From Roseibacillus sp. (GTDB taxonomy: Bacteria > Verrucomicrobiota > Verrucomicrobiia > Verrucomicrobiales > Akkermansiaceae), in assembly GCA_051251855.1 (NCBI GenBank), contig JBPOGI010000007.1:64001-128000 (forward strand): 64,000 nucleotides of DNA, in the 5' to 3' direction. Positions 33,001-39,000 of the stretch are shown in pieces. The position numbers are program-made. Each line of letters opens with the position of its first letter. The first letter of the stretch is position 1.

Positions 33001-36000
33001 GAATGCTCCAAAAGCACTCTCCTCCAAAAGCAGCAGCGGGCAGCTCAAAGAAAGCGGATTCTTAGGCTTTGGTTTCTTCGGCCTCTTTACCCTCGTAGGA
33101 GTCGGAGTTTTCCTCGGACTGGTTCTTCCCACCGCTAAAAAATACCTCGCCGCCAAAACATGGGAACCTGTCAACGCTACCGTCATCTGGAGCAAGGTTC
33201 GTTCACACTCCTCCGATGACGGCACCACATACAGCCCCGACGTCTTCTATCGCTACCGATTCCAAGGAGAGGACTTTCGTTCTAACAACTTCTCACTCAT
33301 GTCCGGCAGCTCCAGCGGATACGATCGCAAGAAAGAGATTGTCGCCGCCCATCCACCTGGCCACACCTTCACCTGCTACGTCAACCCCAACGAACCCTGG
33401 CAAGCCGTCGTCCAAGCCAAACTCGGATGGTGGGCCCTCTTCGGTCTCTTCCCCCTCCCCTTTCTAGCGGTAGGACTTGGTGGTCTCTGGTGGATGCTCA
33501 AAGGCTCAAAATCTAACAAATCACCCAATCTGCCGATTCGCTCGGGCATCAAAGGGTCTTCCCCTCAACTTCCAAAGAAGCCGAAGTCAGGCAATCGTTG
33601 GGGCAAATTCCTTGGACACCTCTTTTTTGCCCTCTTCTGGTGCGGAATTGTCAGCGTCTTCCTCACCTTCGCTTGGAAAGACTGGGCCAAGGGGGATCCC
33701 GAGTGGTTCCTCATTATCTTCATGATTCCTTTCGTCCTGGTGGGTCTCTTCCTTCTTGGAACATTGCCTCACAGCTTTCTCGCCATCTTCTCCCCTCGCT
33801 TCGACCTCGACTTTCGGGACCCTGAACTGAAGCCTGGTCTCGCCACCAAATTTCGCTGGAAACAAAGTGGCGGCAGTGGCCAGCTCACCGAAATGACGAT
33901 CACGCTTGAGGGACGCGAAGAAGCGACTTATCAGCGAGGCACAGATCGCGCGACGGCGACTTCGCTTTTCTATCAGAAGGAAATTTTTAAGTCTTCTCAT
34001 CTCCCCGAGATGATTGCCAACGAGTGCGACCTTATCTTCCCTGCCGACACCCTTCCGAGCTTCGAAGGCGAACATAACAAAATCTGCTGGTGTCTCCGCA
34101 TGAACGCAGCGGTCAAAGCACGGCCCGATGTCCGCGAGGAAATCGAGATCACCCTTCAACCTCTCACCGAAAACGACTTCCGATGAGCACCTCAACCTCA
34201 GGGATCGAGATTGAGCTCGACCACTTTCACCACCAGCCCTTCCAAGAACTGAAAGGCAAAGTCCGTATCACGACACCAACCCCGCCCGAAGGTATGGAGC
34301 TCCGGGTCTTTTGGTTCACTCGAGGGCGTGGCGACGAAGAAGCCTCCATCATTCATCGTCTCAAACTCGAAACCGCCCAAGCGCTCACGAACTTCTCATG
34401 GAAACTTCCCGCTGCCCCCTACAGCTTCGCCGGCAAGCTCATCACCCTCGCTTGGGCTATCGAAGTTGTGGATGAAAACGAGCAATCCCTCGACCTTGTG
34501 CCCTTCCTCCTCTCCCCGAGTGGCGAAGAGGTTCAACTGGAAGCCATTCCTGACAACTCGCGCGCAGGAAAGCTCAAAGAAAAACTCGAGAAGAAATTCG
34601 GGCCACCGAGGAGCCAGTGAAAGCTCACCTCAACCCCTTCGCTCCCGACCGGGTGCAGCGGCTCCTTCCCTTTGACCCTGAACTCATCGAGACCACTTGG
34701 GAACAACTTGAAACTCGCTGGGAAAACCTTCATCGGCGAGCGGTCATTACCGGCCCTCACGGCAGCGGAAAGACCACCTTCCTCAACACCTTTGCCGAGC
34801 GCCTCGCTGACACCTATCACGTCGAAACCCTCTTCTTTCACCGTGACGAGCACCGCCTCTCTCCCCAGCAAAGGAAACAAATCACTCGGCTCAAAGCCCC
34901 CTCTCGCACCATTCTCCTCGTCGATGGTGAAGGCCACCTCACTTTGCGCGAACGCCATTGGTTGCGCCACCAAAGCCAAGAGATGGCAGGCTACCTTGTC
35001 GCGCGCCATCACCGCTGCACCCTCCCCACTCTGCTTTCTCTCAGCGTGACCCCAAAACTTGCCCATCAACTCCTCGAACAGATTCACCCGGCAGAAGCCA
35101 CTCGTCGCGCAAACGATCTCCCCCAACTTCTTCGAAAAAAGAGCGGGAACCTACGCGAACTCTGGCTTAGCTTTTATGACAACTATGCGAGCCAAGACTC
35201 TCCTCCCTCTTCTGTTCCTCCTAACCCTGACCTGCAGCGGAGCCAAGCTCGCTCCCGGTGAGCCCCTGCCCTCCCTCACTCTCCCCACCGCCAGAGAGCA
35301 CAAGCCTCTCAGCACCGACTCCTTTCTCGGAAAGAAGACCCTCGTTCACATCTTTGCTTCCTGGTGAGCAGGCTGCCGTAAGCACGTGCCCGGGTGGCAC
35401 AACCAAACGAAAGACCTCGTAACAGAAGGCAAATTGCAAGTATTCGGCATCGCACCCGAACAATACGGCGATCGTATGGCTCTCTTTCTTCAATGGAAGA
35501 ACCTCGAATTCCCCGTCCTGATGGATCCCTTAAATGTGCTCAATGTCTCTGCCGTCCCCATCACTCTTCTCGTCGATGAGTCCGGAGTGATTCGCTACCG
35601 CAATCCCAAGCCTAGAGATCTAAAAGTCTTTTTAGACAAAGAATACCCCGAAACCGCAAGAGTCATCACTCCCGCTTCTCCTCTCGGACAAGAGCAGGCG
35701 CTGCGGGCGCTTCAAAATCGAGACACAGCCGAAATCGAGAGAGCTGCTACCATGTTGGCCTTACTCTCGACTTCGAATAAAAATCCTGAATTCACTTTTC
35801 AATCCGGCGTTCTTGCTCGCTGGCTCTTTGACAACGGAGGCGATCCCGAGAATTTTCAAACTGCGGTCCACCTCTGGAGCGACGCCCTTGCTCATCGCCC
35901 CGGTCAATACATCTGGCGCCGAAGAATCCAGCAATACGGTCCTCGCCTTGATAAGCCCTACCCATTCTACAACTGGGTCATCGAAGCTCGCAAAGACCTG

Positions 36001-39000
36001 CAAGCCGCTGGAAAAACGCCTCACCCGCTCCAAGTCGAACCATCAGGCTCGGAAGTGGCAGCCCCGCGCAAGAAAGGCGAACAAGGAAAAGAGTCCCCCA
36101 ACTTCCCCGACCCTAACAACAAGCTCCCCCACGAAAACGCCCTCCTCGAAATCACAACCACTACCATCCCGCATACCGACGCCCCCGAGAAGGGACGCCT
36201 CCACCTCCTGCTCACTCCTACCGAGAACGGGCATTGGTCCAGCGATGCTCAAAAGGTCGAGCTCTGGTTTCGTCCCGAAGAAGGCTCCCCCATCTTTCTC
36301 ACCAGCGAGGCCACTTCCCTCCCGGCTAATCTCGAGACCAGCAGCCTCCCCCGAGTCCTCGAAGGAGATTTCTCTCTTCCACAAAACTCCGCTGGGAAGC
36401 TGGTTCTCTTCTACTCCCTTTGCGAAACCGAGAATGCTGTTTGCCGCTTTCTCAAAACGGAATGGAAATTTCATCAGTAAGCCCCTCCCGTTTATTGCAG
36501 GAACAAGAATGTCCCTGCTCCTTTGACTCAGCTGCCTTTTTCGTTAGTCTCCGGCATGGCTAACGAACTCGTCAAAATACCCCGTCAGCGCGAGGTATCT
36601 CCTTGCCCGTGCAACAAGGAGAAGAGCTACGACCAATGCTGCATGCCCTTTCACTATGGCCGCGCCATGCCCGAGACGGCGGAACAACTGATGCGGTCAC
36701 GCTACACCGCCTTTTTCTTCCGACTCGTCGACTACCTCGTTTCCACCACTCACCCCGACAAGCGCGAGAAAGACCTCGCTCGCGAACTCGACAAAACCAT
36801 CTGGAATCCCAGTTGGCGAAAGCTCCAAGTCATTTCCCAATCGAAAGGCGGCAAAGAGGATAAAACCGGCAAAGTCGAATTCATTGCCACCTTTTCACTC
36901 GATGGCGAAAAACGCGAACTCCACGAAAAATCCCGCTTCCGCCGCTACAAAGGCAAGTGGATGTATGTAGATGGGAAAGGATAACGAAAATGAGCCTACA
37001 AGAAGAGTGGAACACACTATGCACCTCGTTGAATCTCGACGGCCTGCACTCTTGGACGAAGATCGAAGAATCCTACAGCAAGAACCAACTGGCTTATCAT
37101 AACCTCACTCATATCGCTGACTGTTTGAGCAAATTTCGAGCCTCACAACATCTTGCCCAAGACCCCGCTGCAATCGAACTCGCCATTTGGTTTCACGATA
37201 TCGTTTACGATCCCAAGGCCTCGGACAACGAGGAACAAAGTGCCCGCAGAGCTGAAAGCTTCCTATTGGATTCTCCTCTAACCACAAGGGTTACCGAACT
37301 CATTCTCGATACCAGCCACCGTCAGGAAGCAGAGACCTCCGACGGCAAGCTCATTTGTGATATCGACCTGAGTATTTTGGGGAGTGACCCAAAGAGCTAC
37401 CGTTCTTATGCAGATGCCATTCGAGAAGAATACTCTTGGGTAAATTCGACCGATTACATGCTCGGGCGCAGCCAAGTCTTAGAGAACTTTCTCAATCGAA
37501 AGAGAATCTTCGCTCTTCCCTACTTTGAAGAAAAATACGAACAGCAAGCACGATTGAACTTATCAGAAGAGTTAGAATCACTGACTAGTTGCTAGAAACC
37601 TCAACCCCCAGCTCCTGAAAGGCGGTGTTTTCCTTGGGATTTTTGGCTGGAGAGACCTGCCAGACGATCCACCGGAACTCCCCAAGAGATTCTCCCTTCG
37701 GAGCTCGCAATGAAAGTGCACTAAACGCTTCCAAGGATTCTTTTCCGCTCTTCAAAACTCCCAAAGGCACGAACCGTTCCGCGTTGGTGAGGTCCCAGCC
37801 TGGGTCTTTCTCATCTGCACTCCCATAGAGACGAACTGACTGATGTCCACGTCGTCCCCCTTCGTTGTGAGACCAACTCGTCATCGCCGAAATACTCTTC
37901 TTCTTCCCGAGGTCTAGTTTGTAGGCACCATCTGTGATCCCATTCCCAAAGACTGGTCCGTATCCTTCCTCCAAGCGACCATCGGTAAGAACCTTCGGCG
38001 AGTCATTGCTTGTCTTCTGATTCGTCATCACTGTTCCCTTCGACTTCTTAGGGACCAACTGATTGAACTCAGAAGCATTCGCGGCGGTCTCAAAAAACAC
38101 GCCCTCACCTAGATTCTTCGTCGTCGCCTTCTTTTCTTCGACGGTCTTCAACTCTTCCACAATGAGCGAACCTTGCATCACCCGCCAGTGACCGGGGAAG
38201 GTGCAGATGTAGGGATAGACTCCCGGTTCAGTGGGAGCTTCGAAAACCAGCTCCTGCTCCTGCTTGGTGGAAAGAAGCTTCGACGCTTGCAGGATTTTTG
38301 CACTCTCAGGGAGATACTCTTTTTCAGCGCCATCCGCTTGGCCAGCTAGCTTGTCCGCCAACGCCCCCATCTCCTCAACGCTTCCGGGAGCAATAAGCAC
38401 CCAGTTGTGCGGCATGATATCGGGGTTTTCAAAAATGAGACGCACCTTACTCCCCGGGGTTACTCGAACTTCCTTGGGAGCAAACTGAAGCCCTGCCGCC
38501 GCCTGCACCCGAACCACGTTCCCTCGCTCAGCCACCATCTCTTCGTATTCCTCAGCAAAGCCCTCCAGCTCATCAAAGCTCTTTGAATACTGAACTCCAG
38601 CGACCTCCTGCCCAACCGGATCATAGAGATAGGCCGGTGGCATGGTCTTGGTTTTGCGACGTCCACTCTTGAGTAAAATCTCAATCGTATTCAGCCCCTT
38701 CTCCAGCTCGACATTGACTTGCTGGTCACCGCTCCAAAGCGAGTCCTGACTAAAAACGAGGCGATCGTTCAGACGAATATCAATCGACATGTGCTTAATC
38801 GCAATGATGGCTGTTGTGGGTTCATCAGCTTGAACAAAAGTTCGGAAGAGCCCCACCCCCGGCAGAGGCTTGCCTTCGGTCGCTAGCTCTGTGGGAACCG
38901 CATCCCCCTTCTCTCCCAGAAACAACCAATGCGTCATCCGTGAGTTCTTATCAACTTCGAGAACCGGAACGCTGCGCCCCTTGAGAGGTTCAATACCAAG

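Follow-up and report, generated by a model that had tools for sequence, protein, structure and literature searches.

A split gene in Roseibacillus encodes a predicted exported selenoprotein with thioredoxin, TPR-like and DsbD-alpha-like domains

Two adjacent gene calls in the window – the 64,000-nucleotide stretch of Roseibacillus sp. DNA that we analyzed – are a single gene for a predicted secreted redox enzyme that very probably carries selenocysteine in its active site. Its four parts are a putative signal peptide, a thioredoxin domain of TlpA/ResA type with a UxxC motif, a TPR-like helical domain, and a C-terminal Ig-like domain (Table 1).

Table 1. Features of the selenoprotein gene (window positions).
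Feature	Position	Strand	Basis or remark
Whole gene	35176..36480	+	434 codons + TAA, one TGA read through
Putative signal peptide, about residues 1-23, MTTMRAKTLLPLLFLLTLTCSGA	35176..35244	+	Own hydropathy and cleavage rule
Thioredoxin-fold domain of TlpA/ResA/CcmG type, residues 27-155	35254..35640	+	Pfam and fold matches
Redox motif S-W-U-A-G-C, residues 62-67	35359..35376	+
TGA read as selenocysteine 64	35365-35367	+	TGA conservation; Sec machinery present
Candidate bacterial SECIS hairpin	35386..35400	+	GUGCC-CGGGU-GGCAC, 18 nt past UGA
TPR-like helical middle domain, residues 170-277	35683..36006	+	Six helices in model
Most conserved family stretch QYIWRRRIQQYGPRLDKPYPFYNW, residues 244-267	35905..35976	+	78 sequences
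C-terminal Ig-like beta-sandwich, residues 320-434	36133..36477	+	Domain model pLDDT 94.3
Cys416-X6-Cys423, last beta hairpin	36421..36444	+	Invariant in 78 and 76 sequences

A conserved in-frame TGA

Under translation Table 11 the gene is split into a 5' piece that runs up to the TGA and a 364-amino acid open reading frame that starts at GTG 35386. Reading through the TGA, which lies in the context FASW-U-AGC, restores one frame that is co-linear with its orthologues over residues 2-433. The N-termini of these orthologues align from MR(A/T)K, and the true start may instead be the ATG at 35185 (M4).

An in-frame TGA with a UxxC motif is not rare by chance, since a six-frame scan of the genome yielded 4129 read-through frames, including 185 with UxxC or CxxU. 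One spurious case comprises sequence upstream of what looks, by eye, like a dihydroorotate dehydrogenase. The TGA occupies the same site in all nine full-length orthologues from related genomes (38-60% identity). It does so again in all 80 loci compared, which span at least five phyla and whose record titles name Verrucomicrobiota, Acidobacteriota, Planctomycetota, Poribacteria and Anaerolineae. The motif across these loci is SWU[AVQ]GC, with GWU in one. None of the 80 has a cysteine at the selenocysteine site, a count biased by the selection of loci through the focal family's own motifs, which are lost in relatives that lack selenocysteine. In all five full-length relatives of the latter kind, the site is occupied by a serine or its motif is disrupted, and all five are missing the C-terminal cysteine pair.

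The gene is sparsely distributed – found in 10 of 60 relatives and in none of 400 in a phylum sample – and is linked to selA. The Roseibacillus genome has a complete selenocysteine machinery (tRNA-Sec, selA, selB and selD), selA is present in all ten related genomes with the gene, and the gene occurs in 0 of 31 genomes without selA. The family is large, and public databases routinely split its members at the selenocysteine codon. A search pattern taken from the QYIWRRRIQQYGPRLDKPYPFYNW stretch recovered 557 genome stretches, and 153 of 261 stored proteins of the family start just past the selenocysteine site.

Downstream of the TGA we identified a candidate SECIS hairpin with a G-rich 5-nt loop, a stem of 5-6 bp, and compensatory changes. 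Across 80 sequences, 96.8% of its cells are paired, compared with 18-62% when the position was slid, and its 11 compensatory cells were matched by 0 of 500 shuffles. Of 79 loci, 77 use GTG for the valine codon in the hairpin, and GTA appears only opposite a TAC partner. Part of this conservation acts at the protein level, since the stem sits in strongly conserved codons (V-P-G-W-H).

We considered whether the TGA might be a true stop, separating two genes or marking a pseudogene, or might be read as an ordinary amino acid. Such explanations could draw on an Rfam search of 34000-38000 that gave nothing even with E allowed up to 10, on the folding of the 66 nt past the UGA, which is no better than that of shuffles (z 0.65), and on the normal use of TGA as a stop in this genome, where it ends 649 of the 2541 open frames of at least 300 codons. 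A true stop that cuts a thioredoxin fold within its active-site motif is nevertheless implausible when all 80 loci, from several phyla, retain it and the coding sequence is conserved before and after it. The apparent start of the downstream open reading frame is the conserved valine codon of the hairpin, every carrier genome has selA, and the full-length structural model is confident across the junction. We regard these explanations as very improbable, and the window protein as very probably a real selenoprotein.

Domain architecture and closest known systems

The whole-protein model is confident (pLDDT 92.3, pTM 0.89), apart from residues 1-20, where pLDDT is about 50. N-termini are hydrophobic in all nine orthologues, and the window protein satisfies our own crude hydropathy and cleavage rule, which 21% of long open reading frames also pass. 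As the orthologues do not share Cys20, the putative Sec-type signal peptide is probably one for SPase I, and export of the protein appears likely.

Consistent with a thioredoxin fold, Pfam models AhpC-TSA (39.6 bits, cut-off 26) and Redoxin (36.6 bits, cut-off 26.6) match the window protein, and Foldseek retrieved DsbE and ResA at E about 1e-8. With VIA-align the domain matched 4grf (Z 15.0), 3gl3 (Z 14.7), and CcmG 1kng (Z 12.4). TlpA/ResA/CcmG (DsbE) structures – including 4grf, 3gl3, 1st9/2f9s, 1kng and 1jfu – show this thioredoxin-like fold, N-terminal extension included (Z 11-15, rmsd 1.9-3.0 over 120-138 residues), and these proteins share with ours the W-x-x-x-C spacing, an export signal (predicted here), and membership in both Pfam families. 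They differ in that the first active-site residue of the window protein is a predicted selenocysteine rather than a cysteine, and in its ~280 extra residues, which form the TPR-like and Ig-like domains. NCBIfam models for TlpA, ResA, DsbE and StoA score only 20-36 bits, against cut-offs of 123-359. The preliminary description had placed this protein outside any curated family, which holds for NCBIfam but not for Pfam.

The best NCBIfam match, NF041054 (WAxxUGC_long, ResA-like WAxxUGC motif-containing protein), likewise describes a long selenoprotein that resembles ResA and continues past the thioredoxin domain. We rejected membership in this family: our protein scores 46.4 bits where the cut-off is 300, only positions 82-201 of the 354 in the model align, and the motif there is U-G-C rather than U-A-G-C. 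The UxxC proteins of TlpA/redoxin type tabled in reviews have the same motif and domain, and the focal protein fits such a heading; as tabled, they were predicted by comparative genomics and never characterized biochemically (PMC9312934, PMC13188914). The tabled descriptions mention neither a three-domain architecture of this kind nor a DsbD-alpha-like cysteine pair.

The middle domain carries an invariant QYIWRRRIQQYGPRLDKPY motif, and the columns of QYIWRRRIQQYGPRLDKPYPFYNW are invariant or nearly so in 78 sequences. TPR families of Pfam match 85 of 128 family members, though not the window protein itself.

We found that the C-terminal domain is remotely related to the N-terminal (alpha) domain of DsbD. 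Aligned by hhalign with 31 DsbD_N domains, it gave a probability of 56.3%, E 1.1e-4, and a score of 31.8, over 118 co-linear columns with the cysteine pairs in register; a reversed control reached 11.3, and none of 30 column shuffles exceeded 17.1. VIA-align matched DsbD-alpha structures 1jpe_A (Z 7.3) and 2k0r (Z 6.8), the former tied with generic Ig-like folds, while superoxide reductase reached Z 8.1. Pfam DsbD_N matches 3 of 128 family members; Pfam gave no match to the C-terminal domain of the window protein, and DsbD was absent from the results of a profile search against PDB sequences. The DsbD alpha domain (PF11412; 1jpe, 2k0r) has the same Ig-like sandwich with a redox cysteine pair on the last hairpin. 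This domain lies N-terminal to the membrane domain in DsbD, whereas the focal domain ends a protein in which it is joined to a client-like thioredoxin, and its cysteines are spaced CX6C (present in 79 of 80 loci) rather than CX3-4C as in the DsbD_N copies we collected.

A possible selenol/thiol-disulfide relay

The alpha domain of DsbD exchanges electrons with CcmG-type thioredoxins. By its title, entry 1z5y is a solved disulfide-linked complex between DsbD-alpha and a chain that matches the focal thioredoxin domain. In the focal family the two redox pairs are conserved jointly, with C416 and C423 invariant in the selenocysteine forms. The Roseibacillus genome encodes one DsbD with alpha and transmembrane domains, the only DsbD-type membrane conduit found, as well as a second, free DsbD_N protein. 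No neighboring gene around the focal locus is conserved beyond the genus, so that genomic context names neither a client nor a donor.

On balance, we favor an exported selenoprotein that acts as a periplasmic selenol/thiol-disulfide relay reductase, with the following inferred electron path and type of client. SelB would probably recognize the hairpin downstream of the UGA and insert selenocysteine, which would serve as the nucleophilic residue of the thioredoxin domain. Reducing power would cross the membrane through the single DsbD, and the alpha-like cysteine pair would undergo thiol-disulfide exchange with U64/C67, either within one protein or on a partner subunit. An oxidized envelope client, probably held by the TPR-like domain, would finally be reduced. 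Participation of the alpha-like domain in a relay with the selenocysteine site is the more tentative part of this proposal.

Electron flow could also run in reverse, with the selenocysteine thioredoxin domain acting like DsbD-gamma, reduced from the membrane and reducing the alpha-like domain. This would make it a soluble hub for several thioredoxin-fold clients rather than an end reductase. DsbD alpha interacts with thioredoxin folds on both sides, both redox pairs are conserved together, and at least nine other predicted exported thioredoxin-fold selenoproteins in the genome would need a reductant. Against this, the DsbD of the genome is already complete, alpha domain included, and the free DsbD_N protein is encoded besides. 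No role is left for the TPR-like domain or the invariant QYIWRRR motif, the family is sparse, and the other exported selenoproteins are more widespread; we consider reverse flow unlikely. A ResA/CcmG-type apocytochrome c reductase with its own chaperone, in which the selenocysteine domain reduces CXXCH and a CcmH/CycH-like TPR holds the apocytochrome, seems quite unlikely. ResA and CcmG are among the closest folds, and Pfam TPR_CcmH_CycH has hits in 13 of the 128 family members (E 1.5e-5 for the best), but TPR models cross-match freely and the generic TPR_11 matches 85 of the same 128. Moreover, no ccm or ccs gene is among the conserved neighbors, a patchy, selA-linked distribution does not fit a housekeeping maturation factor, and the NCBIfam ResA, DsbE and TlpA models fall far under their cut-offs.

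Selenocysteine reacts fast with peroxides, and an envelope peroxidase could use it as the peroxidatic residue of a Prx-like thiol peroxidase, resolved or recycled by the C-terminal cysteine pair. AhpC-TSA is the best Pfam match, several Bcp/Prx structures match at Z 12-13.6, and review tables class such proteins as 'Prx-like thiol:disulfide oxidoreductase, UxxC'. The peroxiredoxin signature as tabled, PxxxTxxC/U (PMC13188914), is however absent from the window protein, which reads H-I-F-A-S-W-U with alanine at -3. Its W-[C/U]-x-x-C spacing agrees with TlpA/ResA-type reductases, its best structural matches are thiol-disulfide oxidoreductases, and we regard a peroxidase as distinctly unlikely.

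Other read-through frames in the genome

The preliminary description listed this gene among ten split gene pairs read as exported thioredoxin-fold selenoproteins. Each of the ten is indeed a single frame with exactly one internal TGA, and the motifs are as reported: SWUAGC, VPGUGPC, TTUGPC, HTUGPF, SHUQAC, GGUGGC, SWUPPC twice, DTUPPC and PGUIKQC. We reproduced the family scores (VPGUxxT type 2, 314.8 against 275; deiodinase_rel, 136.8 against 250) and the lack of any match for g02367/66. In the frames with a family match, the TGA does coincide with the redox motif of a fold of thioredoxin type. Signal or lipoprotein N-termini had been assigned to all ten; eight pass our crude rule, with its 21% background, and the other two resemble them by eye. 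The proposal that 11 of 12 selenoproteins work outside the cytoplasm needs correction, as SelD itself has an in-frame TGA (CAGUASK). We also found a further paralogue with two TGAs at C6:484046-484696.

Reviews of prokaryotic selenoproteins already include every one of these kinds: UxxC TlpA/redoxin-type, Trx, deiodinase-like, VPGUxxT and Prx-like (PMC9312934, PMC13188914). The principle is thus not new, and what could be new is the focal architecture and the count per genome.

The ten frames stand above chance because homology to the thioredoxin fold spans the TGA and relatives conserve this codon. It is kept for nine of the ten; for g00949/48 (SHUQAC), 30 relatives yielded no homologue. More distant relatives often lack the stop, and the ten genomes in which the SWUPPC family gave stop-free matches are all without selA.

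The focal frame and its in-frame TGA

The preliminary description listed ten pairs of adjacent gene calls, each joined by one TGA within a thioredoxin-fold redox motif. We found that all ten coordinate pairs are single frames with exactly one internal TGA, that their motifs match those listed, and that the family scores return the same values on re-run. The window corresponds to C11:64001-128000. Under translation table 11, the frame considered here (g03721/2) breaks up into a short 5' piece and, from a GTG at 35386, an ORF of 364 aa. TGA is an ordinary stop in this genome, where it ends 649 of the 2541 frames of ≥300 codons. 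A six-frame scan, which asked for ≥25 codons before the TGA and ≥40 after it, returned 4129 read-through frames genome-wide, including 185 with UxxC or CxxU. Chance alone thus often yields an in-frame TGA with xxC after it, and the case for selenocysteine (Sec) rests on comparative evidence. One candidate from this background, 'GQYCUSFCH', was dismissed as spurious sequence upstream of a dihydroorotate dehydrogenase gene (named by eye). A genome-wide phmmer search for further thioredoxin-fold read-through frames found none beyond trivial overlaps.

Features of the focal gene and its product, adjacent frames and two further TGA-containing genes (window positions unless residues or a contig are named)
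Feature	Location	Strand	Details
Focal frame	35176-36480	+	434 codons, TAA end, one internal TGA
Internal TGA	35365-35367	+	residue 64, motif F-A-S-W-U-A-G-C
Candidate bSECIS hairpin	35386-35400	+	GUGCC-CGGGU-GGCAC, 18 nt after UGA, 5-6 bp
Signal-like N-terminus	residues 1-23		charged then hydrophobic, ends SGA, pLDDT about 50
TlpA/ResA/CcmG-type thioredoxin fold	residues 27-155		Pfam, Foldseek, VIA-align
Paired-helix, TPR-like middle domain	residues 170-277		model
Most conserved stretch of the family, QYIWRRRIQQYGPRLDKPYPFYNW	residues 244-267		78-sequence alignment
Eight-stranded Ig-like sandwich	residues 320-434		domain model pLDDT 94.3
214-aa ORF	34617-35261	+	P-loop ITGPHGSGKTT
153-aa ORF	36523-36984	+	just downstream of focal gene, carries CPCNKEKSYDQCC
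1363-aa ORF	37585-41676	-	about 1.1 kb downstream of focal gene
selD (L010)	contig C7:93121-94050	+	one in-frame TGA, SSCAGUASK, outside window
Paralogue of g02367/66	contig C6:484046-484696	-	42% identity, two in-frame TGAs, outside window

Among 60 relatives searched, all nine full-length orthologues contain exactly one TGA, always within FASWUAGCR; a tenth copy (genome G009) ends at a contig edge before the Sec site and is outside this count. The full-length orthologues share 38-60% identity, are co-linear across residues 2-433, and show coding conservation on both sides of the TGA. Three of them (L019 in genome G034, L021 in G056 and L022 in G052) also terminate in TGA, so that one codon serves as Sec, at about codon 64, and as stop within the same gene. 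A conserved-peptide scan of one genome per species located family relatives at 557 stretches, and a TGA occupies the Sec site in 80 of 80 loci examined (the best 80 of the 557, L067 included). Record titles of the loci name Verrucomicrobiota (among them Roseibacillus persicicus, 60% identity, and Oceaniferula), Acidobacteriota, Planctomycetota, Poribacteria and Anaerolineae. At a threshold of E 1e-30 or better, 251 clusters (50% identity) match the family. A phylum-wide sample of 400 genomes yielded zero further copies at E 1e-20, and the family is therefore sparse in the genomes searched. One member (L092, CAYRXP010000329.1) lies on a 1.6-kb contig of an 'uncultured Enterobacteriaceae' bin; the contig is probably mis-binned, because its sequence groups with Acidobacteriota-type copies.

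The genome encodes tRNA-Sec, selA, selB and selD, all above curated cut-offs. Within the set of relatives, selA was found in 30 of 61 genomes. All ten carriers lie among these 30, and the focal gene is missing from each of the 31 in which selA was not found – though the genomes compared are kin, and these figures describe a pattern rather than a test. We conclude that the focal frame is a real gene and that its product is very probably a selenoprotein.

We identified a candidate bacterial SECIS (bSECIS) hairpin downstream of the UGA. An Rfam scan of 34000-38000 (E up to 10) returned three chance lncRNA matches only and no SECIS family, and the 66 nt that follow the UGA folded no better than shuffles (single sequence, z 0.65). 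An alifold of 10 sequences showed weak covariation. In 80 sequences, the cells of the six proposed pairs are base-paired in 96.8% of cases, and 11 of them show compensatory changes; 0 of 500 shuffles reached this compensatory count or the covariation score, and sliding the partner by 1-3 columns lowers pairing to 18-62%. Across phyla, 77 of 79 loci use GTG as the Val codon in the 5' arm. Both GTA loci have TAC in the 3' arm, which creates an A-U pair, and four other TAC loci keep a G-U pair. The second position of the loop is always G, and the hairpin fits the minimal bacterial SECIS pattern, in which a stem-loop whose apical loop contains G follows the UGA at some 16-37 nt. Because the stem is short and falls within conserved codons, we regard the hairpin as a candidate SECIS only.

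The 214-aa P-loop ORF, which is conserved within the genus only, runs 86 nt past the annotated start of the focal gene in another frame. Translation of the focal gene may instead begin at the ATG at 35185.

Domain architecture and likeness to DsbD-alpha

The focal protein was modelled at full length by AlphaFold2 with a pLDDT of 92.3 and a pTM of 0.89 (78-sequence alignment). Its N-terminus meets our crude signal-peptide rule, and N-termini of like character occur in all nine orthologues. Because Cys20 is not conserved, we read the N-terminal sequence as an SPase I signal rather than a lipobox. The protein is probably exported.

The TlpA/ResA-type domain has Sec as the first residue of its W-x-x-x-C active-site motif. 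The protein had been described as lacking a curated family. This holds for NCBIfam, where the best model, WAxxUGC_long, scores 46.4 against a cut-off of 300 and TlpA, ResA, DsbE and StoA score 19.7-35.8 against cut-offs of 123-359, but not for Pfam, where AhpC-TSA (39.6 against 26) and Redoxin (36.6 against 26.6) exceed their gathering thresholds. Foldseek matched the thioredoxin domain to DsbE and ResA at about 1e-8, and VIA-align matched it to 4grf (Z 15.0), 3gl3 (Z 14.7), ResA (Z 13.6) and CcmG (Z 12.4). Peroxiredoxins carry a peroxidatic signature, PxxxTxxC/U (PMC13188914, accessible portion). The focal protein lacks the PxxxT/SxxC(U) motif: its site is HIFASWU, in which position -3 is Ala.

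Pfam TPR_11 matches 85 of 128 family members but not the window protein, and the whole-model VIA search was swamped by thioredoxin folds and hardly probes the middle domain. No library searched explains the stretch that is most conserved in the family.

The C-terminal Ig-like domain carries Cys416 and Cys423 on its last hairpin, and both residues are invariant in family alignments. Its fold matches include DsbD-alpha 1jpe_A (Z 7.3 over 101 residues, rmsd 3.4) and 2k0r (Z 6.8), with scores tied with those of superoxide reductase (Z 8.1), GAE, FN3 and similar folds. The superoxide reductase site is Fe(His)4Cys. Although superoxide reductase is the best fold match (E 4.5e-4), we set it aside as a functional lead because the domain has only one near-invariant His. 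Pfam returned no family for the C-terminal 135 residues of the window protein at E up to 1, and DsbD_N (PF11412) matches 3 of 128 family members, with a best E of 0.0072. A C-terminal profile searched against PDB sequences gave two irrelevant weak matches only, with DsbD absent. We used hhalign to compare the profile of the C-terminal domain with that of 31 bona fide DsbD_N domains, gathered from this genome and from relatives, and obtained a probability of 56.3%, an E of 1.1e-4 and a score of 31.8 over 118 co-linear columns. This register aligns the Cys pairs and places aHWnNEA over wHTYWkNPG and PxGW over LPxGF. The reversed profile scored 11.3, and the maximum of 30 column shuffles was 17.1. 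These comparisons make it reasonably likely that the C-terminal domain is a divergent DsbD-alpha domain. A disulfide-linked complex of DsbD-alpha with a thioredoxin-fold partner, presumably CcmG, exists (1z5y, according to its title).

Jointly conserved redox sites and a possible relay

We observed the C-terminal Cys pair in 79 of 80 Sec-bearing loci. Most database gene calls begin right after the Sec site (MPGWH or MHVPGWH; 153 of 261 stored proteins), and the N-terminal part is covered by only five (P0196, P0199, P0218, P0242, P0245) of the 150 best cluster representatives. These five full-length relatives are Sec-less, and their sites read SWSEEC, SWSEAC, SWSKEC, AGCEGS and SSSASS. Alongside the Ser or disrupted motif, the C-terminal Cys pair is lost (one protein keeps a single Cys) and the QYIWRRR motif is degenerate. 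These proteins have the look of family derivatives that are redox-dead. No CxxC form was found in the 80 loci, nor in the 261 stored database proteins that were screened – though both samples are biased, the loci having been picked by Sec-form motifs and only the best 150 of 4098 database matches having been covered.

We propose that the focal protein could act as an exported relay reductase. Electrons would come from the genome's only DsbD, whose alpha and membrane domains share one 718-codon frame, and would be exchanged, in a presumed direction, between the alpha-like Cys pair and the U64/C67 pair. Their target would be an oxidised putative client bound by the TPR-like domain. A stronger claim is that the family is an obligately Sec-dependent envelope module, in which a CcmG-like domain is fused to its own DsbD-alpha-like partner and Sec is never replaced by Cys; we regard this as speculative and rather unlikely. 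If true, it would imply a periplasmic reaction that sulfur cannot support, and the protein would be one node among at least ten exported selenoproteins, all fed via the single DsbD.

UxxC selenoproteins of TlpA/redoxin type are already known in bacteria as a kind, and all ten frames fall under known selenoprotein kinds (PMC9312934, PMC13188914, accessible portions). What appears to be new is the three-domain, apparently Sec-obligate form without a curated model. For such selenoproteins, the accessible portions of these two papers do not mention TPR, a DsbD-alpha-like domain or a signal peptide, and the accessible text of PMC13188914 contains no mention of TPR, signal peptide, Verrucomicrobi-, Planctomyc- or Acidobacteri-. 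Likewise, we found no description of the three-domain architecture in the accessible literature, supplements aside, on Verrucomicrobia selenoproteomes or DsbD/selenocysteine fusions. Gene calls that start after the UGA and lack the active site would cause selenium use to be underestimated in the phyla that the record titles name. With no Cys form seen, and with Sec loss paired with loss of a distant Cys pair, the family would offer a testable case of what selenium does, and sulfur cannot, in an oxidising envelope. The DsbD-alpha-like/CcmG-like fusion would likewise be a natural 'tethered complex' in which to study electron hand-over in disulfide cascades.

Genomic context gives no help with mechanism, as no neighbour conserved beyond the genus was found around the focal family. 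A divergent ArsC/LMW-phosphatase-like gene (CX5R, CVANSARSQMA; named by eye) lies just upstream of the family member only in five Marinacidobacterales loci (L066, L070, L073, L095, L108). Three other Verrucomicrobiota loci (L044, L046, L054) carry a relative of the 1363-aa ORF <3 kb from their member of the focal family, a co-location that could be weak linkage or chance. The stretch carried by the 153-aa ORF resembles, by eye, a SEC-C/YchJ-type metal-binding motif.

The other nine frames and the selenoproteome

Conservation of the TGA in relatives extends to eight of the other nine frames; for the ninth, SHUQAC (g00949/48), we found zero homologues in 30 relatives. In searches of 30-40 relatives, VPGU had nine matches with a TGA outside this genome and three that were stop-free. 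Matches with a TGA numbered six for TTUGPC, seven for the deiodinase-like HTUGPF, five for DTUPPC and thirteen for the PrxQ-like PGUIKQC. GGUGGC retains its TGA in 5 of 5 same-genus orthologues. SWUPPC has 21 TGA matches in other genomes in addition to an in-genome paralogue (g01257/58), and its stop-free matches are all in ten genomes without selA. Two of the PrxQ-like matches, each with one TGA inside, lie at G038:C93:22267-22758 and G043:C44:16058-16525. In these two genomes, both about 96% complete, selA was not found at E 1e-30. Some hairpin is present within about 25 nt of the UGA in all ten frames, as judged by an uncontrolled minimum-energy fold.

All ten proteins had been said to start with a signal or lipoprotein peptide. 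Our crude rule is passed by eight of them, against a background of 21% of 3319 long ORFs, and failed by two (MKLLLLFLALTLPISA and MLRLFLATALLCLPLSA), which miss it only by the cleavage-window setting. Lipoboxes are present in three of the ten N-termini (LMAC, LASC and LSSC). The LTGC match in g03681/82 was rejected as likely chance, with its Cys inside the hydrophobic core.

The broader idea that this genome encodes an exported selenoproteome is correct for the most part, although the number given was wrong and the principle is not new. The preliminary description placed 11 of 12 selenoproteins outside the cytoplasm. SelD, which has an in-frame TGA of its own, is a further, cytoplasmic selenoprotein missing from those 12. 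Because SelD and the two-TGA paralogue of g02367/66 add to the list, the selenoproteome comprises at least 13 members, perhaps 14. This paralogue has a signal-like N-terminus, TGAs five codons apart (VDTULDLAUGKS) and Ser in place of the resolving Cys; it is a protein with two Sec residues or else a copy in decay.
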